Part shown: piece after piece, positions 1,959 through 59,696 of the stretch | Layout of the letters: every line of letters starts with the position of its first letter | Numbering within the stretch: position 1 is the stretch's first letter | Assembly: GCA_902555985.1 (NCBI GenBank) | Contig: CACDUI010000003.1 | Location: 12,432-76,431 of the forward strand | Source: an uncultured Candidatus Actinomarina sp. | Lineage (GTDB): Bacteria > Actinomycetota > Acidimicrobiia > Actinomarinales > Actinomarinaceae | Direction of reading: 5' to 3' | DNA length: 64,000 nucleotides | Program-made: the position numbers and the translations under genes | Notes under the pieces: generated by a model | The model's input: only the letters and a program-made list of their open reading frames with translations | The model's database searches: none | What the model was told of the DNA's origin: nothing

Positions 1959-3583
1959 TGGGAATAGCTAGACAGTCTATAGAAGATCTCAAGAAAAGGT
2001 CAAAAATTAGTGACTTTATTCTTTCAACAACATCAGGCAAGTTAAGAGGTACAAAAGGCATGGCCCTGTGTCCATTTCACGGAGAAAAAACTGCGAGTAT
2101 GAGTTTTACAGATGTTGAAAATCTTTTTCACTGTTTTGGATGTAAGGAGGGTGGGGACATTTTCAAATATGTCCAAGAAATAAATAATTTAGAGTTTCAA
2201 GATGCAATAGAGTTTGTAGCAGAAAAATATGGATTCAAATTAACTTATACACAAAGTAATGAAAATAATGACTTTAAAGTGTATCAAGAAAAGATAGATT
2301 TAATCAGTAACTATTTTTTAGAAACAATGGAATCTGATAAATCTAAAGATGCAAAAGTGTACTTAAAAAGTAGAAAATATGACAACAGTGACATAAAGAA
2401 ATATGCCATCTCCTTTGTTAGTAAAGATGAAGAGAGCTTTAATAAATTTTGTAAATTGAATGATATTACTAAAGATGATCTCAAGAGACTTGGGTTCATC
2501 AGTAGCAATGGCAACATGCTTTTTAAAAATAGAATAATGTTTCCAATTCTAAGTTTTAGAAATGATATTATTGCTTTTGGTGGAAGATCCATAGATGACT
2601 TTGGACCTAAGTATTTAAATTCTTCAGATTCAGTACTTTATAAAAAAAATAGGAATCTCTACTTTACCAATGATTTCATAAGTGCAACGAAAAAGAAGGG
2701 ATATGCAATTCTAGTTGAAGGTTATTTTGACGTTTTATCTTTAAATAAGTTAGGTTACGCAAATGCAGCATCCCCATCTGGTACTGCATTAACACATCAG
2801 CAATTAGAATCTGTCTCACGGTATACAAATAAAATACTTATTTGTTTTGACAACGATGAAGCAGGATTAAAAGCAACAGAAAGAGTTTTAGATATTAAAA
2901 ACCAAGTTTCAAAACAGCTTGAAATCCATTGTTTAAATCTTCCATCTGACTACAAAGATATATCGGAAGTTTATGAATTAAAACCAGACACTTTTAATGA
3001 AATATTGAAAAAAAATGATGAAATTGTTGAATATTTATTAACTAAATTTCTAAAAGAAGATTCTAATAAAAAAAATGTTTTCAATTATTTTCGTAAAATC
3101 ACAAACAAATTGAGTCCTCTAGAAGTAGATATTGCATTAGATTTGCTATCTAATAAGCTAAGCACTGAAAAAGAAATTCTTAAAAGAGAGCTTAACTTTC
3201 AAACAGAGAATGACGTTGTACAAGTGAATGAAACTTCTATAGATTCTGTTTCCATTTTTCAAGATATCGTAACTTCAAATATTGTTAAGAATAATTTTGA
3301 AATATTAGAGGAAGAAAAAGAAATTCTGTCATTAAATAATGAGTATGCAAACCTAATAAATTCTCTAAAAAAAGACAAAAATCAAAGCAAAGAGTATCTG
3401 AATGTATCTTTTTTACAAGATCAATATGAAGAGGCTATTGTACGACTGTTCCTTCATTTTGCAAATATAGAAATTGAAAATTTAATAAATAAATTTGAAC
3501 AAGAAGAGAGCAAAGATTTTTCACTATTGCAACAGGTTGAAGACTTAAAAAAGAAAAAAGAAATTTATCAGAATACTATTTGA
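1958..3583 (+). CDS. dnaG: DNA primase
   Basis: 541 aa. Zinc-binding CPFHGEKTASMSF...FHCFGCKEGGD and the TOPRIM motifs EGYFDVLSL and CFDNDEAG are present. The start overlaps the glyQS stop (TAATG). Confidence 0.85.
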   Translation: MGIARQSIEDLKKRSKISDFILSTTSGKLRGTKGMALCPFHGEKTASMSFTDVENLFHCFGCKEGGDIFKYVQEINNLEFQDAIEFVAEKYGFKLTYTQSNENNDFKVYQEKIDLISNYFLETMESDKSKDAKVYLKSRKYDNSDIKKYAISFVSKDEESFNKFCKLNDITKDDLKRLGFISSNGNMLFKNRIMFPILSFRNDIIAFGGRSIDDFGPKYLNSSDSVLYKKNRNLYFTNDFISATKKKGYAILVEGYFDVLSLNKLGYANAASPSGTALTHQQLESVSRYTNKILICFDNDEAGLKATERVLDIKNQVSKQLEIHCLNLPSDYKDISEVYELKPDTFNEILKKNDEIVEYLLTKFLKEDSNKKNVFNYFRKITNKLSPLEVDIALDLLSNKLSTEKEILKRELNFQTENDVVQVNETSIDSVSIFQDIVTSNIVKNNFEILEEEKEILSLNNEYANLINSLKKDKNQSKEYLNVSFLQDQYEEAIVRLFLHFANIEIENLINKFEQEESKDFSLLQQVEDLKKKKEIYQNTI

Positions 3584-3606: not shown

Positions 3607-3682
3607 TCCGAGGTAGCTCAATTGGCAGAGCAGCGGACTGTTAATCCGTTGGTTGTGGGTTCAAGTCCCACCCTCGGAGCCA
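3607..3682 (+). tRNA. tRNA-Asn (anticodon GTT), CCA encoded
   Basis: Manual fold: acceptor tccgagg/cctcgga, D arm gctc-aattggc-agagc, anticodon stem gcgga/tccgt with loop ctGTTaa, T arm gtggg-ttcaagt-cccac, then g-CCA. Confidence 0.85.
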
Positions 3683-4020: not shown

Positions 4021-4094
4021 GGGCCTGTAGCTCAGTTGGTTAGAGCAACGGACTCATAATCCGTCGGTCGCAGGTTCGAGTCCTGCCGGGCCCA
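4021..4094 (+). tRNA. tRNA with CAT anticodon (elongator Met, or tRNA-Ile2 read via lysidine)
   Basis: Manual fold: acceptor gggcctg/cgggccc (one GU pair), D arm tagctcagttggttagagc, anticodon stem acgga/tccgt with loop ctCATaa, T arm cgcaggttcgagtcctgc. There is no initiator-type C1:A72 mismatch or GGG/CCC anticodon stem. CCA is not encoded. Confidence 0.85.
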
Positions 4095-43901: not shown

Positions 43902-43908
43902 GTGATTT

Positions 43909-44241
43909 TGTGAGATTATAAGCCGGATTCTGTATATGTTGCACATACGATAATCATCCATCTTGTATATTTGTTACCAAATATATCTAGCTACTTACCC
44001 GCAATTGTTTGCCGAGCCGGCTAATTGCTTCTTAGTATTGCTCCTAGAGGGGTTTACAAGCTTGTTTAATCACTTAAACAACTGGTGGTCTCTTACACCA
44101 CCTTTTCACCCTTGCTTATCTAAGATAAGCGGTTTGTTTTCTGCTGCACTTTCCGTCAATTACTTGCCTGGGAGTTACCCAGCTCTATTGCTCTACGGAG
44201 TCCGGACTTTCCTCGATAAATCGCGATTATCCATCTCACTT
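43909..44241 (-). ncRNA. rnpB: RNase P RNA, bacterial type A
   Basis: The minus-strand sequence contains GAGGAAAGTCCGGACTCC (P4 5' strand), AAGGGTGAAAAGGTGGTGTAAGAGACCACCAG (P10-P12 conserved region) and ACAGAATCCGGCTTATAA (P4 3' strand). P1 pairs GTGAGAT (5') with ATCTCAC (3'). The segment is GC-enriched. Confidence 0.9.
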
Positions 44242-44256
44242 AATTTATAGTAATTC

Positions 44257-51305: not shown

Positions 51306-52097
51306 TTATTTAGTTAATTCCCACATACCTATAGCAGCAGCTGTTGAAGCATTTAAAGAATCTACATTATTAGTCGATCTGATACTCAAGGCTACATATT
51401 CGTTTTCAAACCACTCATTAGAAATGCCGTATTGCTCAGCACCTACCACTACAGCAAAGTTATTTTCAGGTTTAAAATTTTCTAGACTTTCTTCACCTTC
51501 AGGATCTAAAAGAAGAATTTGATAATTATTTGAATTTAAAAAATCTCTTATCTTCTTATTACTGCTGCTCCAGATGTTCATATTAAAAACATGCCCAACA
51601 GAAGCTCTGATTACATTTGGGTTAAAAATATCTGTTATTTCGTCAGAGAGAAAAATATTGTTTATACCAAAAGATTTTGCAGTTCTAATCATTGTTCCCA
51701 AGTTTCCAGGTTTCTCTATTTGATCTGGTATTAAAATAGGTCCATTTATTTTATCAGGTAGGCTCAAATCTCTTGTATTAAATACTGCTATGAAACCATC
51801 AGGCCTATCTCGATAGGACATAGCTTTAAAAACTTTTTCAGATACTTTGACAATTCGAATATTTTCTTGTTCACATTCATCAAGTAGATCTTTATTATTT
51901 TCTCCAATGAATAGATCGCTACAAAAATACAATGTATCAATTTCATAATTTGAATCTAATAATTTATAACATTCTCTGAAACCTTCAGAAATTGATTTAT
52001 TAGATGACTTCCTATTTCGATTTTTTTTTAAAGATACTAAGAATTTATATTCAGGATTATTGAGTGATTCAATATTTTTATTTGCTGAAAAATTCAT
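51306..52097 (-). CDS. TrmH/SpoU family RNA 2'-O-methyltransferase
   Basis: 263 aa with the SPOUT motif PGNLGTMIRTAKSFGI and a C-terminal knot region. Confidence 0.7.
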   Translation of the reverse strand: MNFSANKNIESLNNPEYKFLVSLKKNRNRKSSNKSISEGFRECYKLLDSNYEIDTLYFCSDLFIGENNKDLLDECEQENIRIVKVSEKVFKAMSYRDRPDGFIAVFNTRDLSLPDKINGPILIPDQIEKPGNLGTMIRTAKSFGINNIFLSDEITDIFNPNVIRASVGHVFNMNIWSSSNKKIRDFLNSNNYQILLLDPEGEESLENFKPENNFAVVVGAEQYGISNEWFENEYVALSIRSTNNVDSLNASTAAAIGMWELTK

Positions 52098-52683
52098 TAT
52101 GTGTAAGTTTCTTTTTTATATTTTGCTTTTTAGAGTTTACTATGTTGTCGTTTTCCACTCCTGCAGTAACCATTCCAACAATTTGATAATCATGTGGAAT
52201 TTTGAATAAATCATGAATTTTTTTTCTGTCAATACTGTGAAGTCCCATAAATCCTGTTGCAAAACCTTGTTCCTCAATAAGAAGTAAGCAGTTCATTAGT
52301 GCAGCTCCAGCGTCAACATACCAATATGGAATGTCCCATTCTTTAGAATTAACTGCATTTTTTTTGTCAGAAGATGAATATCTCTTGTGATACTCATCTT
52401 CATTTAACAATAAAAAAAATAATCCTAAAGAATTCGATATCCACGGAGATTGATTATCTTTTTTGAAACTATCTTCATTAAATATTTGTGATACAGTTTT
52501 TATTTTTTTTGTGTCGAAAGTATTTAGTATTTCAATTCCTCTTGAAAATCCAGCTGTAGGTATTTTTACTGCGTACTTTGCAATATCTTCTAAGCTATTT
52601 TTATCAAAGGAAGCTTTTTGATAACTTCTGACTACTTTCCTATTATTTAAAAGATTTTCGAGATAGGTAGTTTCATTAGTCAT
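52078..52683 (-). CDS. Nitroreductase family protein
   Basis: 201 aa. The N-terminal LLNNRKVVRSYQ...IAKYAVKIPTAGFSRG resembles the nitroreductase FMN-binding N-terminus. Confidence 0.5.
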   Translation of the reverse strand: MTNETTYLENLLNNRKVVRSYQKASFDKNSLEDIAKYAVKIPTAGFSRGIEILNTFDTKKIKTVSQIFNEDSFKKDNQSPWISNSLGLFFLLLNEDEYHKRYSSSDKKNAVNSKEWDIPYWYVDAGAALMNCLLLIEEQGFATGFMGLHSIDRKKIHDLFKIPHDYQIVGMVTAGVENDNIVNSKKQNIKKKLTHNEFFSK

Positions 52684-53743
52684 TAAAATTTTGCAATGAA
52701 TTTACTACAGCGTCTCCAACTTCGCTTGTAGTCATACCCATTTTTCCAGCCGAAAGTGAGTCAAGCTTTATAGCTGTATCAATTACAGCTTTCTCTATGT
52801 TGTCAGCGTATTTCTCTTCTCCTAGTTGCTTTACCATCATCGCAGCGGCTCCAACGCATGCTAAAGGGTTAATAACATTTTGATTTGTGTATTTTGGTGC
52901 AGAACCTCCTATAGGTTCAAACATGGAAACCCCTTCTGGATTAATATTACCACCAGCAGCAATACCCATACCACCCTGAATCATCGCACCTAAATCGGTG
53001 ATAATATCTCCAAACATATTATCAGTAACTATTACATCAAACCATTCTGGATTTTTCACCATCCACATACACACAGCGTCGACATGGCCATAGTCTGTTT
53101 CAATTTCAGGATAATCTTTTGCCACATCATAAAAGATTCTTTCCCATAAATCGTGTGCATAAGTTAAAACATTAGTCTTCGCACATAATGTAATTTTTTT
53201 ACGGTTATTATTTTTTGTATATTCAAAAGCATATTTTATACACCTGTGTATTGCATAATATGAATTAATCGATTCTTGAGTAGCAATTTCATTTTCAGTT
53301 CCGTAATGAATATAGCCTCCAGCACCTGCATAAAGTCCTTCAGTATTTTCTCTAACAACAACAAAGTTGATATCTTCTGGATTCTTGTTTGCTAGGGGAG
53401 TTTCTACACCAGGATACAGAACCACAGGCCTTAAATTTATATACTGATCAAATTCTTTTCTAAGTTTAAGGAGTATTCCTTGCTCAAGTATTCCAGGCTT
53501 TACACCAGGGTGACCTATTGCTCCTAACAAGACAGCATCAGCATTCTTTAATTGCTCAATATCTTGATCCGTGACAAGTTCTCCTGATTTTAGATACCTG
53601 TCACCACCTAAATCATTATTACTAAAAATAAATTCTACACCATAGTCTGCAGAAGTTGCTTTAAGAACTTTAACTGCTTCATTTACTACTTCTGGACCAG
53701 TTCCATCACCAGGAAGTAATGATATGTTATATTGTTTACTCAT
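52676..53743 (-). CDS. leuB: 3-isopropylmalate dehydrogenase (short form)
   Basis: 355 aa with [11 protein letters not shown] and the isocitrate/isopropylmalate DH fold. It is adjacent to a leuA-like gene. Confidence 0.8.
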
Positions 53744-55230
53744 TTGTTTAACGCATTCAAAAATGACTCTACGGAACCTTGTACAACATCAGTTGAAACA
53801 GCTCTTCCTTGCTTCATTAAGTGCCCATCATTTATTATTGTTACAATTTCAGCAGTTGCATCAGCACCTTTTGTAATACTCTCAACTCTATAGTCAATTA
53901 AAGTTGCGTCTGATTTAAGAATAGTTTTAACTGCAGTAAATGCAGCATGAATCATTCCATCTCCAGTTGCTTCTTCAGTCACTTCCTCATCACCAACTTT
54001 AAGAGTTACACTAGCTGATGCGAATTCATCTTTACTGTTTACAGAAACTGAAATAAGCTTTGCAGCATCATTTTTTGTTTCAACTTGTCCTACTATTGCT
54101 CTTAGTTCATTTTCTACAATTTCACCTTTTCTATCAGCAATTTTTTTAAATGTATCAAAAGCATTATTAAAAGCATCATCATCTAAAATAATTTCTAATT
54201 TATCTAGGGCGTCTTTGAATCCCGCTCTACCAGAATGTTTTCCTAGTATAATTTTTGCCTCTTGACCTACTGAATCAGGGGACATGATTTCATAAGTAGT
54301 TGTATTTCTTAAATAACCATGTTGATGAATTCCTGATTCGTGGCTAAAGGCATTTTTGCCAACAACTGCCTTATTATATTGAACAGGATATCCAGTGAGT
54401 TTAGATACTAATCTAGATGTTTCAAATATCTCTTGAGTTTCAGCTTTAATTTCCACTCCAAATTGATCTTGTCTTGTTTTCACTGCCATAATAATTTCTT
54501 CAGTAGAAGTATTTCCTGCTCTTTCACCAATTCCATTTATAGCACCTTCAATTTGTCTCGCACCTGCAGTAATTGCTGTTAATGAATTAGCAACTGCTAA
54601 ACCTAAATCATTATGGCAGTGTGTAGAAATGATTACATCTTCGTTACCACCTTTGACTTCATCATAAACTGCCGTTAATAAATCTAGGTAATCCTGAGGA
54701 GTTGCATATCCAACTGTATCTGGAACATTAATTGTTGTGGCACCTTCTTCTACAGCCACCTTCAATACCTCAATAAGAAAATCTTTGTCAGTCCTTGTAG
54801 CATCTTGTGCTGAGAATTCTATGTTTTCACAAAGCTTTTTTGCATACTTTACAGACTCTTTTGTATCATTTAATACTTCCTCTTTGGTTTTTCGCAACAT
54901 GTGCTCCATATGAATTTGAGATGTAGAAGTAAAAACATGTATTCTTGAATCTTTAGCAACTTTTATTGCTTCCCATGCCTGTTCTATGTCATCTGGGTGA
55001 CATCTAGCAAGAGAAGCAATAGTTGAATTTTTTATATTTTTTGCAATCAAATTTACACCTTCCCAGTCGCCAGGTGATGATGCTGCAAAACCAGCTTCAA
55101 TTACATCAACCTTTAATTTTTCTAGCTGTTGTGCAATTAACAACTTCTCTGATGGGGTTAAGGCTATTCCGGGACTTTGTTCACCATCTCTAAGTGTTGT
55201 GTCAAATATGACTAGTTTATCGTCGCTCAT
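53740..55230 (-). CDS. leuA: 2-isopropylmalate synthase / (R)-citramalate synthase family (LeuA/CimA, short form)
   Basis: 496 aa with [16 protein letters not shown] and the HxH motif [13 protein letters not shown]. Confidence 0.75.
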
Positions 55231-56243
55231 TTATCTTTTGATATATCCTTAGCATTCAAAAAAGGCATCATTTCTCTTAGACCCTTGCCAACTTCTTCAA
55301 GTTGGTGTTTTGAAGCTTCCGCTCTTTTTTCGTTTAAAAAAGGAGACCCTTCTCTAGCTTGTGCCATCCACTCTTTAGCAAATGCACCAGATTGTATTTC
55401 TTCAAGAACTTTTTTCATTTCACCTTTTGTTTCAGAAGTTATAATTCTTGAACCCCTTGAAAAATCACCATATTCTGCTGTATCAGATATTGAATGCCTC
55501 ATCCACTCAAAGCCACCTTCGTACATCAAATCAACAATTAGTTTTACTTCATGCAAGGTTTCAAAGTAAGCACTTTCTGGTTGGTATCCAGCTTCTACGA
55601 GTGTTTCAAAGCCGTTTCTTATTAATTCAGTCAAACCTCCACATAGAACAACTTGTTCACCAAATAAATCAGTTTCAGTTTCTTCTTTAAATGTGGTTCT
55701 TAAAATACCAGCTCTACCTCCACCAATTGCCGATGCATATGACATTGCAACATTTTCAGTATTTCCTGAAGCATCTTTATGAACGGCTACCAGACATGGC
55801 ATTCCGCTACCTTCTGCATAGGTTCTTCTTAAAAGATGACCAGGACCCTTTGGTGCAACCATAGCAACAGACAGGTCTTCTCTTGGAACTATTTCATTAA
55901 AATGAATGTTGAAACCGTGTGCGAATAGTAGGGTAGCCCCTTCTTTCATATGCAATGAAATTTCAGAGTTGTAAACATCTGCCATAACTTGATCTGGTAA
56001 AAGAAGCATTACTATGTCAGCATCTTTAGTAGCATTTTCTAAGTTTGCGACTTTTAAACCCATTTCTTCAGCTCTATTGAAAGATTCAGATTCCTCTCTT
56101 AACCCAACAGTTATATCTACGCCAGACTCATGCAAGTTAAGTGAGTGAGCATGACCTTGACTACCAAAACCTATTACTGCTACTTTCTTTGACTTTATCA
56201 ATTCTTGATCTATTGATGAGTCATAAATTATTTTGCTTTCCAT
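55227..56243 (-). CDS. ilvC: Ketol-acid reductoisomerase (class I)
   Basis: 338 aa with [13 protein letters not shown] and C-terminal KARI helices. Confidence 0.9.
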
Positions 56244-56252
56244 ATATCCTCC

Positions 56253-56726
56253 TTACAAATTAGATTGCAGTGCTATTCTTCCACCTCTAACCATTTCTAT
56301 TATTCCAAACGGTTTCATTAAAGATTCAAACTTGTCTAACTCCTTAGATGAACCTGTTAATTCAAAAATTGCAAAATCCTGTCCGACATCTACAGAAGTA
56401 GCATTTGATAGAGAAGCTTTTTCAATTACAGAAGTTTGAGAATCTTTGTTTATAGAAACTTTCAATAATAAAACTTCAGTTTCAATTGTCATAGATGGAT
56501 CAAGTTCAACTATTTTTATAACATTAACTAATTTGTTTAATTGTTTTTTTACTTGTTCAACAGCATCAAGTTCAGTAACTATTGTCATCTTGGACCTGCC
56601 TTCAATATTTGTTGGCCCAACAGAAAGAGAATTTATATTGAAACCTCGTCTTGAAATAGTTGATGACACCCTTGCTAGGACTCCAGGTTTATCCTCTACT
56701 AAAACTGATAAAATTCTTTCACTCAT
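56253..56726 (-). CDS. ilvN: Acetolactate synthase small (regulatory) subunit
   Basis: 157 aa. The N-terminal ILSVLVEDKPGVLARVSS is an ACT domain. Confidence 0.8.
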   Translation of the reverse strand: MSERILSVLVEDKPGVLARVSSTISRRGFNINSLSVGPTNIEGRSKMTIVTELDAVEQVKKQLNKLVNVIKIVELDPSMTIETEVLLLKVSINKDSQTSVIEKASLSNATSVDVGQDFAIFELTGSSKELDKFESLMKPFGIIEMVRGGRIALQSNL

Positions 56727-58435
56727 AAGTTTTTAAGATCTTCTTTATTCATAATTATCTGATCGTTGCTTCCACCTGCAGGCACCATAGGAAATACCAT
56801 ATCATCTGGGTCAACAACACAATCTACCAAAACTGGTTTATCGTTTACTTCTAACATTTTGTTAAAAACTTTTTCAACATCAGATTTTTCCATCATTCTC
56901 ATGCCAATAGCACCCATTGATTCTGCTAATTTAACATAGTCAGGTGTATCGTGGGTTAGTTCAGAAGCAGAAAACTTACTATTGTAAAATATCTTTTGCC
57001 ACTGACGTACCATCCCATGGTTACCATTATTAAAAACAACAATCTTTATAGGAATATTTTCTGTTGAAGCTGTAATAAGCTCCTGACATGTCATTTGAAA
57101 ACATCCATCACCATCTAAAGCCAAAACTAATTTATTTGGGTAGGCTGTTTTAGCTCCAATTGCACCAGGTAGAGCATAGCCCATTGTTCCTAAACCACCT
57201 GAATTTAACCAAGTATTAGGTTCAGTAAAATTCCAGTGCTGGGAAATCCACATTTGATGTTGCCCAACTCCTGAAACTACAATTGCTTCCTCTTTAGTAA
57301 GTTTTTGTAGCTCTTCAAGTACATAAGGAACTTTGAGAGGCCCCTTGTCTTCTTGTTTGTAAGATAGAGGAAACTTAGATTTCATATCTTTAAGTTCTGA
57401 TATCCAGCTTTCAGTATCTAGATTTGTGTCGCCAAGTGATTCCATGAGTCCTTTTATTACACTTTTTGCATCACCAACAATAGGTACTTCTGCATCTCTT
57501 ACTTTTCCAATCTCTGCTGGATCTATATCTGCGTGAATAACTTTTGCATTTTGTGCAAAAAAAGATGGATTAGCAGTTACTCTGTCATCAAACCTTACAC
57601 CTATTGCAATCAATAAGTCTGCATTTTGGATAGAAGTTGTTGCGGTATAATTTCCATGCATTCCTGGCATTTCAAGACATAATTCATTTCCATCAGGGAA
57701 TGCACCTCTTCCCATGAGAGTAGTAACAACGGGGATCTTAAATTTTGTAGCTAAATCGAACAGTTCGGTATTTGCTTTAGAGTGAATGATTCCTCCACCA
57801 ACGTATAAAATCGGTTTTTTAGATTTTTTAATTAAATTTGCAGCCTGTTGAACCATTTTAGGGTTTGGCTCAAGAGTTGGTTTGTATCCAGGTAGGTCTA
57901 ATTTACCTGGTTCAACCCAAGAAGCTTGTTGATTAAGAATATCTTTTGGTATATCGATTAATACTGGGCCGGGTCTTCCAGTAGTGGCAATATATTTTGC
58001 CTCTTTTAAAATCTGAGGTATTTCAGAAGCATCTGTAATTAAATAATTATGTTTTGTTGCTGCCATTGAAAGGCCAACAGTGTATGCCTCTTGAAAAGCA
58101 TCATTTCCAATTGCATCTGATGCTACTTGTCCAGTAATAGCTAATAAAGGAGTAGAGTCCATTAATGCATTTGCTAAAGGTGTAATTAAGTTTGTTGCAC
58201 CAGGGCCAGAAGTAGCTATTACAACACCAAGTTCACCTGTTGCTTGAGCATATCCTTCAGCCATGTGCCCAGCACCTTGTTCATGTCTAGCGAGTATGTG
58301 TCGAATAGGACTATCGTATAAAGGATCATAAGCAGGGAGTATTGCACCACCTGGCACACCAAAGACTGTAGAAACATTAATATGCTCTAAACCTCTTATT
58401 ACTAATTCCGCTCCACTTAATTTGTCTTTTGTCAT
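56723..58435 (-). CDS. ilvB: Acetolactate synthase large subunit
   Basis: 570 aa with the TPP enzyme motifs GAGHMAEGYAQATG and GGLGTMGYALPGAIGA. Confidence 0.9.
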   Translation of the reverse strand: MTKDKLSGAELVIRGLEHINVSTVFGVPGGAILPAYDPLYDSPIRHILARHEQGAGHMAEGYAQATGELGVVIATSGPGATNLITPLANALMDSTPLLAITGQVASDAIGNDAFQEAYTVGLSMAATKHNYLITDASEIPQILKEAKYIATTGRPGPVLIDIPKDILNQQASWVEPGKLDLPGYKPTLEPNPKMVQQAANLIKKSKKPILYVGGGIIHSKANTELFDLATKFKIPVVTTLMGRGAFPDGNELCLEMPGMHGNYTATTSIQNADLLIAIGVRFDDRVTANPSFFAQNAKVIHADIDPAEIGKVRDAEVPIVGDAKSVIKGLMESLGDTNLDTESWISELKDMKSKFPLSYKQEDKGPLKVPYVLEELQKLTKEEAIVVSGVGQHQMWISQHWNFTEPNTWLNSGGLGTMGYALPGAIGAKTAYPNKLVLALDGDGCFQMTCQELITASTENIPIKIVVFNNGNHGMVRQWQKIFYNSKFSASELTHDTPDYVKLAESMGAIGMRMMEKSDVEKVFNKMLEVNDKPVLVDCVVDPDDMVFPMVPAGGSNDQIIMNKEDLKNL

Positions 58436-58452
58436 ATATTTTTATCGTTCCT

Positions 58453-58506
58453 AAAAAAAAACCTCCCTATTTTTTTGGGAGGCGCTCATCAAAGCAAAAT
58501 GAGCGC
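58453..58506 (-). promoter_or_regulatory. ilvBNC leader attenuator: pause hairpin plus intrinsic terminator
   Basis: On the mRNA (minus) strand: an 8-bp hairpin GCGCUCAU-N9-AUGAGCGC (58482-58506), then CCUCCC-AAAAAAAUA-GGGAGG (58462-58482), then U9 (58453-58461), then an RBS and the ilvB AUG at 58435. Confidence 0.6.
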
Positions 58507-58556
58507 TAAATAAGTAATAGCACCAATTCTGAAATGACTACATTTAAATTTTTCAT
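58506..58556 (-). CDS. Putative ilv leader peptide MKNLNVVISELVLLLI
   Basis: A 16-codon ORF on the minus strand with 10 of 15 post-Met residues V/I/L. Its stop codon abuts the first leader hairpin. It lies upstream of ilvB and is co-directional. Confidence 0.5.
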   Translation of the reverse strand: MKNLNVVISELVLLLI

Positions 58557-58586
58557 TTAGAATAACTATAGTAAAGCCAAAAAAAA

Positions 58587-59696
58587 ATGAAAGAAATAAA
58601 TATTATAAATTTTTTAGAAGACAACGATATTAAATTGTCTTCCAATTTCAAATTAGGAGTAACTAGCCTGCCTTCTAATATAAATTTTGAAAAAAAAATT
58701 AGTGAAATAAAAGATAAACAACTTCATGCAAATATGAAGTTTACTTTTTCAAAACCAGAATATTCAGGTTTAGCCGATAAATTTAGTTGGGCTAAATCAG
58801 CATTACTCTTAACTTACAACTATAAAAATAAAACTCAGCCCTCAATGCTTGTTTCCCCTGGCTATGGTCAAATAGCTAGGTTTGCAGAAGAAGATTATTA
58901 TCTTCCTTTAAAAAATAAAATTTTAGAAATTGAAAAAGTATTTGAAAATTTAGATATAAAATTTCAGTCATTTATTGATAATCCAAGTCACTATGATCGT
59001 ACTTTTTTTGTATCTTCAGGACTAGGCTGGCAGGGTAAAAGCACAATGATGCTTACACCCGGTTCAGGACCATGGCAGCTGCTAGCAACTATCTATGTCG
59101 ATTTTAATTTTAAAGAAAATAAAAATTCCGAATTTTCTTGTGGAGAATGTAATTTGTGTCAAATTTCATGCCCAACAGGAGCATTAGACATGGATTATAA
59201 ATTAGATTCTAATAAGTGCATTTCTTACTGGTTACAATCTCCTGAGATTATTCCATATGAAATAAGAGATGCAATTGGAAATAAGTTTTACGGTTGTGAT
59301 GATTGTCTAACCTCATGTCCACCAGGTCAAGAGAACAAAATTTTTGTTACATTTAATAAAAACCAAAGAGTGAATCTTCAAGAAATTATTGAATCTGACG
59401 ATGAGCGTTTACTTGAAAAATACTATTGGTTTTATATACCAAAAAGGAATGCTGAATTTTTAAAAAGAAATGCCATTATTGCATTGGGGAATAATCCTGA
59501 TAACAGTACTTCAGAATTTTTTAGAAATGTTTATTCGAAATTCTCAACACACTTAAAAATTTATACTCTTTGGGCTCTTTTTAAAAATAATAATGTTGAG
59601 TTATGTGAACAATTAATTAAATTATATGATTCAGGTAATCCAAACATACTGGAAGAATATGAAAAATTAAAAGAAATGATTTCGTTGGTTAAATAA
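58587..59696 (+). CDS. queG: tRNA epoxyqueuosine(34) reductase
   Basis: 369 aa with 4Fe-4S motifs [16 protein letters not shown] and CDDCLTSCP, and a C-terminal HEAT-like region. Confidence 0.7.

Follow-up and report, generated by a model that had tools for sequence, protein, structure and literature searches.

An uncultured Candidatus Actinomarina sp. keeps its branched-chain amino acid genes ilvB, ilvN, ilvC, leuA, and leuB in one compact block on the minus strand, with a single large gap directly before ilvB. What occupies this gap, and how could it control the genes behind it? We analyzed a 64,000-nucleotide (nt) stretch of the genome (contig CACDUI010000003.1 of assembly GCA_902555985.1, here called the window; all coordinates are window positions) and compared the region upstream of ilvB with its counterparts in other Acidimicrobiia. 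With good confidence, we read the element in the gap as a leader-peptide transcription attenuator, through which a translating ribosome would tie expression of ilvBNC-leuAB to the charging of Leu, Val, and possibly Ile tRNAs. A first-pass annotation had proposed attenuation by branched-chain amino acids at this place, and the proposal is supported by the conservation of the mini-open reading frame (mini-ORF), hairpins, and U tract, by covariation, by pairings that depend on ribosome position, and by precedents in Mycobacterium tuberculosis and Corynebacterium. The device is a conserved example of known ribosome-sensed attenuation rather than a novel type of system. It appears to be a lineage-specific form of the actinobacterial ilvB attenuator, whose variant features are a stop codon within the closing pair of the antiterminator, the loss of a spacer, and an added upstream pairing. 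No such ilvB leader is described for Acidimicrobiia or Actinomarinales in the literature searched, and the family is absent from Rfam 15.

Anatomy of the leader upstream of ilvB

The leader ORF lies on the minus strand (58506..58556), with an ATG at 58556-58554, 16 codons (MKNLNVVISELVLLLI), and a TAG at 58508-58506. After the initial methionine, 10 of the 15 residues are valine, isoleucine, or leucine (V/I/L). A short ORF rich in codons for the end product, placed before the biosynthetic operon, is a class trait of attenuators, and this ORF is kept in 8 Actinomarina-type loci and 124 annotated members of a wider family. The other trait of the class, an intrinsic terminator that follows the leader ORF and precedes the structural genes, is present as a 7-base-pair (bp) stem rich in G and C (GC), followed by nine U residues (U9), and its helix covaries in the family. 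The predicted terminator (58453..58483, minus strand) pairs G-CCUCCC at 58483-58477 with GGGAGG-U at 58467-58461 across a 9-nt loop; its core is CCUCCC at 58482-58477 and GGGAGG at 58467-58462, and the U9 tract (58461-58453) lies directly 3' of GGGAGG. A consensus terminator scan overlooked this stem, as it permitted loops of 3 to 8 nt. The U tract ends 17 nt before the ilvB ATG (58435), and the distance between the leader ATG and the ilvB ATG is 121 nt. The location first described for the leader, in the sole large gap of the ilv-leu block and before a gene confirmed as ilvB, is correct.

The ORF and the terminator are joined by hairpin H1, the candidate antiterminator (58482..58506, minus strand). 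Its arms are GCGCUCAU (58506-58499) and AUGAGCGC (58489-58482); folded as GCGCUCAU(U)/(G)AUGAGCGC, it has a loop of 7 to 9 nt and an energy of -13.1 kcal/mol. The closing pair is formed by G58506, the third base of the UAG, and C58482. The first-pass annotation gave the minus-strand coordinates and sequences of the leader, hairpins, and U run exactly to the base. Both hairpins of its layout are present, but they are not separate: C58482 is common to both, and so is G58483 if its G-U pair with U58461 is counted. G58483 has C58505 (in H1) and U58461 (in the terminator) as alternative partners. The energy of the terminator is -11.5 kcal/mol with 7 bp and -7.7 kcal/mol with the 5 bp left once H1 keeps G58483 and C58482. 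A third pairing starts from GGUGCUA (region 1; 58518..58524, minus strand), which covers the end of codon 11 plus codons 12 and 13. When the RNA is free of ribosomes, region 1 pairs with UAGCGCU at 58508-58502 (-7.1 kcal/mol in minimum-free-energy and partition-function folds), and it would serve as an anti-antiterminator.

The fold z-score of the leader is -2.8. Among 878 ATG mini-ORFs of 8 to 30 codons in the window, 9 have a V/I/L-rich end, and just the leader ORF is followed by a GC hairpin and a run of at least seven T residues. The motif CCTCC-N3-14-GGAGG occurs once in the 64 kb, compared to an expected 0.07. A second V/I/L-ending mini-ORF, MKEQSYNSLFILIL at 3457 on the minus strand, precedes a T run without a GC hairpin and lies near two plus-strand tRNA genes (3607-3679 and 4021-4094); it is probably due to chance. 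Three further features of the leader were considered and dropped. A second ORF from an NUG in the H1 3' arm has no Shine-Dalgarno sequence, and three of the four bases yield a start codon there by chance; kissing of the H1 loop with the terminator loop is not conserved; and the terminator GGGAGG, as a Shine-Dalgarno sequence for ilvB, is 27 nt from the ATG.

Conservation in Actinomarina and across the Acidimicrobiia

How much of this anatomy is shared by relatives? IlvB of the window (GC content, ~30%) is 84 to 86% identical to that of Candidatus Actinomarina genomes and 52 to 64% identical to that of other Acidimicrobiia. Seven other Actinomarina-type loci were compared, four of them genomic (two identical in the leader region) and three contributed by a metagenome scan, which are too few for covariation within the genus. 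In all seven, the leader ORF has exactly 16 codons and encodes MKNLIVLILEVVLLLK, MKKSVNLISLLVLVLM, MKKLYVLITLLVLVLM, MKNLAVFISVLVLLLI, or MKRIQILITLLVLVLM with diverged nucleotides. All seven also have the TAG fused to a GCGCUC(A).../...(U)GAGCGC hairpin (H1) and an invariant junction between H1 and the terminator, GAGCGCCUCCC, followed by GGGAGG and U9 (the CCUCCC/GGGAGG stem). Loops and most codons vary among these loci, and the H1 and terminator stems are invariant. An alignment of related genomes had been suggested as a check by the first-pass annotation, and the comparison of relatives finds the mini-ORF, both hairpins, and the U tract in 7/7 of these loci and, in diverged form, in 77 of 80 Acidimicrobiia genomes.

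The upstream pairing is also kept. GUG-CUN is present in every Actinomarina-type leader, at codons 12 and 13 in some and at codons 14 and 15 in others. GTG accounts for 8% of the Val codons in the genes of the window, where 5 of 116 Val-Leu dipeptides are written as GTG-CTN. Since the upkeep of the GUGCU:AGCGC pairing requires these rare codons, the pairing is apparently selected.

In high-GC Acidimicrobiia, the same plan is built from other sequences. The ORF has 9 to 19 codons; near its end, four to six V/I/L residues stand in a row, with zero to two other residues after them, and this run begins 5 to 6 codons ahead of the stop in 43 of 64 leaders. Counted from the first base of the stop codon, the strong GC hairpin equivalent to H1 has its start at offset 0 to +3 in 55 of 70 loci, with the third base of the stop as the commonest site (29/70), and the spacer between this hairpin and the terminator measures 0 to 3 nt in 54 of 70 loci and 4 to 8 nt in some members. 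Terminators of the family are of the CCUCC/GGAGG type or the CCCCUCGC/GCGAGGGG type, and their U runs are kept. In an alignment of 117 leaders, T reaches at least 90% at the second codon position over four consecutive codons, corresponding to the second positions of V/I/L codons; the peptide sequence outside the V/I/L run is not conserved. Actinomarina-type leaders share with this family the order of parts, the TAG-H1 fusion, and the terminator core. They differ by a longer ORF, in which V/I/L residues are scattered across 13 of the 16 codons, by AT-rich loops, and the absence of a spacer, so that H1 is fused with the terminator (2 shared nt), and by the extra GUGCU:AGCGC pairing, which high-GC members do not show.

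Covariation supports both helices. In a MAFFT alignment that was not fitted to the structure, 89% of the cells in the two helices are paired, compared to 40 to 59% when the partner is slid by 1 to 3 columns. Compensatory changes are found in 14 of 16 pairs, including all 10 modeled H1 pairs, and 3 of the 6 core pairs of the terminator covary between CG and UA. The covariation score is 0.341, compared to 0.198 in shuffles, and 0 of 500 shuffles reached this value. RNAalifold on the MAFFT alignment recovered the terminator alone, and H1 required an explicit structure string. H1 closes with G-C in 97 sequences and with A-U in 8, which tracks UAG versus UGA or UAA stops, indicating that the last base of the stop codon is part of H1. 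The leader stop is TAG in 111 of 124 members, with C (86) or G (33) as the next base, and TAG is the rarest stop among the genes of the window (6/47). This preference for TAG arises, at least in part, because H1 closure needs a G.

Homology between the window leader and the class-wide family was examined with R1, a covariance model trained on 64 high-GC leaders and on no Actinomarina-type sequence. Against the whole window on both strands, R1 gave a single match, at 58452-58526 on the minus strand (31.5 bits; E value, 4.6e-7), which spans the model at full length (positions 1 to 82). The loci L001 to L004 scored 32.6 to 36.2 bits. In 77 of 80 genome loci, R1 has one match upstream of ilvB and on the ilvB strand, and no second copy was found in 671 kb of flanks. 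The R1 alignment places the window without the family spacer and the outer terminator pairs, with H1 fused onto the terminator. At the gathering score, Rfam 15 has no relevant family in the leader region of the window or in 15 relatives. At E values up to 10, its sole match in the leader region is Enterococcus-1, at chance level (14.5 bits, compared to a threshold of 71.4), and the Rfam models of T-box, guanosine tetraphosphate (ppGpp) riboswitch, ilvB-OMG, and other known ilvB RNA regulators have no match in the leader region.

The family shows some further traits. In genomes of 60 to 70% GC (e.g., L006, L022, and L037), the V/I/L run is written in the A/T-ending codons GUA, GUU, CUU, and AUU, which are presumably rare there and would sharpen the sensing of tRNA charging. 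Some high-GC leaders (L006 and L018) have a third hairpin between the terminator and ilvB, with a GGCACACC segment that resembles the H1 5' arm within 40 nt downstream of the terminator; across the family, pairing between the H1 arms and the region downstream of the terminator is not enriched. The CCUC/GAGG core of the terminator is kept from Actinomarina to Mycobacterium, in the forms CCUCCC/GGGAGG, CCCUCC/GGAGGG, CCCCUCGC/GCGAGGGG, and ACCCUCG/CGAGGGU. Its 3' arm is Shine-Dalgarno-like and its 5' arm resembles the 16S anti-Shine-Dalgarno sequence, and such sequence conservation is unusual in terminators.

Ribosome position, termination, and rival explanations

How would the position of a ribosome be read out by these pairings? 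We folded the leader with a ribosome mask that covers 15 nt on the 5' side and 11 nt on the 3' side of the first A-site base, placed on each codon in turn; pairing probabilities (P) are those of two longer transcripts (to +1U and through U9), and a third, shorter transcript was also folded. With no ribosome, or with codons 4 to 8 in the A site, GGUGCUA:UAGCGCU pairs, the two outermost pairs of H1 have P of <0.2, and the terminator has 7 bp (basal P, 0.65 to 0.97). With codons 9 to 13 in the A site, the upstream segment is covered and the H1 core has P of ~1; the basal pairs of the terminator have P of ~0.1 and 0.3 to 0.5, leaving a 5-bp stem that is set back from the U tract. At codon 14, H1 loses its closing pair and its core stays at P of ~1, with the second basal pair of the terminator at 0.99 and the outermost G-U pair at 0.2 to 0.3. 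At codon 15, codon 16, or the stop, the H1 5' arm is inside the ribosome, H1 is absent, and the terminator is complete (basal P, 0.8 to 1.0). This three-state pattern is reproduced in 7/7 distinct Actinomarina-type leaders. The mutually exclusive terminator and antiterminator expected by the first-pass annotation are found in part: alternative pairings do depend on the ribosome, but their exclusivity is limited to the two basal pairs of the terminator (2 shared nt).

In the proposed mechanism, transcription would start at or near the leader ATG, and a ribosome would translate the 16 codons while RNA polymerase makes the next ~50 nt. When amino acids are plentiful, the ribosome would reach the UAG and hold the H1 5' arm wholly inside, because the G of the stop codon is the closing base of H1. 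G58483 and C58482 would then be free, the 7-bp terminator would zip to U9, and transcription would end ~20 nt before ilvB. When Leu or Val is scarce, the ribosome would stall with one of codons ~9 to 13 (S E L V L) in the A site, covering GGUGCUA and leaving H1 free. H1 would form first and hold the two nucleotides needed for the basal pairs of the terminator, which would be cut to its weaker 5-bp form and detached from the U tract, and the polymerase would read through; the bulk of the abutting helix perhaps adds to the loss of termination. If the leader is not translated, GGUGCUA would pair with UAGCGCU and block H1, leaving the terminator complete. In the model, L11, V12, and L13 fall inside the predicted sensing codons, and I8 and I16 fall outside. 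The logic predicted is that of a classical attenuator, in which plenty leads to termination, stalling to read-through, and lack of translation to termination.

Several points weigh against this account. The element is known from sequence alone, in an uncultured organism. H1 and the terminator have just 2 nt in common, and most relatives have none. A 5- to 6-bp GC stem with U9 is still predicted in the stalled state; because the 5-bp core is not displaced at any ribosome position and the second basal pair still has a P of 0.3 to 0.5 at equilibrium, base-pair competition alone would give a modest regulatory range. In 57 of 64 high-GC relatives, the terminator is predicted at every ribosome position, and among 13 segment pairs compared with shuffles in 124 leaders (codons, H1 arms and loop, spacer, terminator arms and loop, and downstream sequence), no hidden antiterminator is enriched. 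Classical strand-sharing is therefore not the general mechanism of the family, and classical exclusivity in the high-GC relatives is not supported by the ribosome-mask folding. Complementarity between the H1 3' arm and the terminator 5' arm is even depleted in the 124 leaders. V/I/L codons 14 to 16 lie outside the predicted sensing interval, I8 hardly affects the terminator, and the interval itself hinges on the footprint chosen (A-site -15 to +11). The -35 region ahead of the leader is poor and overlaps the start of queG, the divergent neighbor. Finally, codon mutations in the ilvB leader of Streptomyces coelicolor were reportedly without effect (cited in PMC1262725).

What, then, would couple stalling to read-through? 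In the family and in the M. tuberculosis ilvB1 leader, the antiterminator and the terminator are adjacent, not overlapping. Equilibrium base-pairing alone does not account for the step from a formed H1 to no termination, and the candidates are a kinetic trap for the basal pairs or steric hindrance from the abutting helix. The rival that survives best keeps the attenuator and changes this step: a stable H1 located 0 to 3 nt upstream would block completion of the terminator in the RNA exit channel, through its bulk or a rigid junction, or would act on RNA polymerase, and Actinomarina would have acquired its 2-nt overlap incidentally, when the spacer was lost from a streamlined genome. We regard it as rather unlikely. 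It fits the short spacers of 54 of 70 loci, the terminator that forms at all ribosome positions in 57 of 64 relatives and in the working M. tuberculosis leader, the absence of any enriched segment pair together with the depleted complementarity, and the R1 alignment, in which the window is without the family spacer and the outer terminator pairs. Yet some family spacers reach 4 to 8 nt, and antitermination by a neighboring hairpin through steric effects only is not known to have a precedent. Equilibrium folding ignores kinetics, and small overlaps may weigh more than computed; moreover, base-pair competition exists in the window and is sufficient in principle. Steric hindrance is thus a rival for the coupling step, not for the identity of the element. 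An equally tentative extension is that actinobacterial ilvB attenuators, M. tuberculosis ilvB1 included, may skip strand-sharing, with a ribosome-gated hairpin abutting the terminator (0- to 3-nt spacer, at most 2 shared nt) that stops completion of the stem and with a CCUC/GAGG stem that might have a sequence-specific role. If true, this would be a mechanistically distinct, adjacency-based attenuation.

Two other alternatives are each very improbable. In one, H1 or the whole leader is the site for a trans-acting factor, such as an RNA-binding protein, a riboswitch ligand, or a T-box tRNA, and the small ORF is incidental. H1 is fairly conserved in sequence across the class (GCGCAC.../...GUGCGC), and ilvB is under T-boxes or ppGpp riboswitches in other phyla (PMC10272879). 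However, the Rfam searches of the window and the 15 relatives gave no such match, the element has ~100 nt and just two simple hairpins, and H1 covaries instead of keeping its sequence. A trans-acting factor would also leave unexplained the T periodicity at codon position 2, the fixed distance from the V/I/L run to the stop, and the third base of the stop covarying with H1. In the other, control is translational: stalling in the leader would expose the ribosome-binding region of ilvB, and the hairpin and U run would be unused as a terminator. Attenuation of translation by leaderless upstream ORFs (uORFs) exists in mycobacteria, where it was proposed for cysteine uORFs (cited in PMC13236596), and ilvB itself has a weak and distant AGGA, 13 nt upstream of its start. 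Set against this, a GC stem with U9 is a canonical intrinsic terminator whose U runs are kept family-wide, pairing of leader segments with the 40 nt downstream of the terminator is not enriched, and the M. tuberculosis homologue yields a transcript of ~120 nt that ends at the U tract (PMC13236596). The weakest alternative, a constitutive leaky terminator or an insulator between divergent promoters beside a meaningless AT-rich mini-ORF or an independent hydrophobic peptide, is effectively refuted by the conservation data, as AT-rich DNA does yield V/I/L-rich mini-ORFs (9/878 in the window) but a terminator follows this one alone, the combination stands before ilvB in 77/80 class genomes and nowhere else in 671 kb, and the peptide is not conserved outside its V/I/L run.

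Operon context and comparison with known attenuators

An attenuator at this position would control a compact block. The genes ilvB (56723-58435), ilvN (56253-56726), ilvC (55227-56243), leuA (53740-55230), and leuB (52676-53743), all on the minus strand, were identified with NCBIfam. The 4-nt overlaps that the first-pass annotation saw throughout are present at ilvB/ilvN, ilvC/leuA, and leuA/leuB, but ilvN and ilvC are separated by a 9-nt gap, and the block runs past leuB. From their spacing, ilvB to leuB (52676..58435) would form one co-transcribed, controlled block. The co-directional genes past leuB are a nitroreductase-family ORF, an RNA methyltransferase, and a DEDD exonuclease, all of which may be co-transcribed with the ilv-leu block. 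The first of these, an ORF of 201 amino acids (52078-52683, minus strand), shares 8 nt with leuB and 20 nt with the following gene; it matches a Pfam nitroreductase family (E value, 4e-9) and has no NCBIfam match.

On the opposite strand lie queG and ilvD, likewise identified with NCBIfam, with the queG ATG at 58587. A -10-like box, TATAGT (58570-58565, minus strand), stands 8 nt before the leader ATG in a perfect palindrome, ACTATAGT (58565..58572), with no Shine-Dalgarno sequence between the box and the ATG. On the plus strand, the palindrome also reads TATAGT, 14 nt before the queG ATG, and the divergent transcripts leader-ilvBNC-leuAB and queG-ilvD may share it as their -10 box; both would then be near-leaderless. 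The distance from TATAGT to the ATG is kept at 8 nt in all Actinomarina-type loci (7 nt in L081), and a strict TANNNT is found 5 to 10 nt before an in-frame start in 32 of 124 family leaders, compared to 4 of 124 displaced controls. Because TATAGT is 8 nt from the ATG without an intervening Shine-Dalgarno sequence, the leader transcript is probably leaderless or near-leaderless, starting at the ATG or a few nucleotides from it; what is firm is the conserved spacing in Actinomarina. A consensus scan found no more promoter matches in the window than in shuffles, and the promoter calls thus derive from conservation. Genomes of Ca. Actinomarinales have a median intergenic spacer of 2 to 3 bp and two sigma factors, and the genome paper of the order makes no mention of attenuators (PMC7771536). 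Elsewhere in the window, 43903-44242 on the minus strand encodes a class A bacterial RNase P RNA (269 bits).

A streamlined genome would thus still devote ~150 bp to a protein-free RNA switch, a single one for the merged ilvBNC-leuAB block. The ilvB attenuators, known from Corynebacterium and Mycobacterium, would now span a second class of actinobacteria, and more than 130 natural variants, together with the covariance model, provide a resource for studies of mechanism.

How does this leader compare with known ones? The first-pass annotation had likened it to leaders of Escherichia coli and corynebacteria; the likeness holds for the logic, but the geometry differs from both. In the enterobacterial trp, ilvBN, and ilvGMEDA leaders, regulatory codons and ribosome position decide among 1:2, 2:3, and 3:4 pairings, and superattenuation follows when translation is lacking. 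The window leader has the same combination of a peptide and three alternative pairings chosen by ribosome position, in its case in silico. Region 3 of the enterobacterial leaders is fully shared between antiterminator and terminator, whereas the window shares 2 nt. They also have a Shine-Dalgarno sequence and a 5' untranslated region, in contrast to the apparently leaderless ORF here, and no sequence relation is seen (the Rfam leader families had no match). In the Bacillus subtilis trp leader, an overlap of 4 nt makes the antiterminator and the terminator exclusive, and a few shared basal nucleotides can therefore suffice; that leader is sensed by a protein, TRAP, without a leader peptide, whereas the window leader would be sensed by the ribosome.

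Closer in phylogeny, ilvB leader peptides and terminators were predicted in 2005 for Corynebacterium, Mycobacterium, and Streptomyces, with their mode of regulation called unclear (Seliverstov et al., PMC1262725). In Corynebacterium, rich medium turns expression from the ilvB leader (that of ilvBNC in C. glutamicum) off (Narunsky et al. 2023, PMC10272879). Its ilvB-II motif resembles the window in a V/I/L-enriched uORF of 15 to 17 codons and stem-loops P1 and P2, of which P2 is the terminator (PMC10272879). As set out in the published motif description, however, most of P1 lies within the uORF, and antitermination is proposed to come from pairing of the P1 loop with the 3' shoulder of P2a, whereas the window ORF ends at the base of H1. 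Complementarity of this type, between the H1 loop and the terminator 3' arm, is not above shuffles in the 124 leaders (mean z, -0.04).

The nearest counterpart is the M. tuberculosis ilvB1 leader. The locus that we compared (L161, M. tuberculosis complex, CP130797.1) was found through the IlvB1 N terminus, which gave a 100% match to database entries. Its leader (~1034-1157) encodes MDKAGKPGMLVVIGRRVGA with a UGA stop, in agreement with the published description (Nat Microbiol 2026; PMC13236596). There, the uORF is translated, a terminated transcript of ~120 nt ends at the U tract, the LVVI codons are regulatory (an LVVI-to-AAAA change is non-inducible), and a ribosome at the stop is modeled to mask the anti-terminator. 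In our folds of L161, the hairpin CGCGUUGGUG/CACCAACGCG forms with K6 to V12 in the A site (before or within LVVI), shortens at I13 and G14, and is gone from R15 on. It adjoins the terminator ACCCUCG.../...CGAGGGU with U6 (~1124-1157) and removes at most the outermost terminator pair. When L161 is folded with RNAfold under ribosome masks, the terminator is predicted throughout, and the published mutually exclusive structures are not reproduced at equilibrium. Since a working attenuator shares the property of minimal overlap, this property does not count against the Actinomarina element. R1, trained on Acidimicrobiia, was also run over 8 kb with filters off; it scores 19.1 bits for M. tuberculosis, 20.4 bits for Mycobacterium xenopi, and 5.7 bits for Nocardia, which is weak and suggestive rather than decisive.

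The traits of the ilvB1 type are present in the window leader, which belongs to the same phylum: a short ORF with a V/I/L run on the same strand directly before ilvB, a ribosome-gated hairpin that would be free on stalling and masked at the stop, and an abutting terminator of the CCUC/GAGG type with a U run. The two differ in the place of the stop codon. The M. tuberculosis ORF enters the 5' arm of the hairpin by six codons, with the UGA in the loop, whereas the UAG of the window lies at the hairpin base and supplies the closing pair; hairpin and terminator have 1 nt in common in M. tuberculosis and 2 nt in the window. The M. tuberculosis leader has experimental support, whereas its Actinomarina counterpart is read from genome sequence. 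The ilvB1 attenuator was recently tied to a collateral vulnerability of rifampicin-resistant strains (PMC13236596), which makes the adjacency of antiterminator and terminator, seen in the Acidimicrobiia leaders and in ilvB1, relevant.

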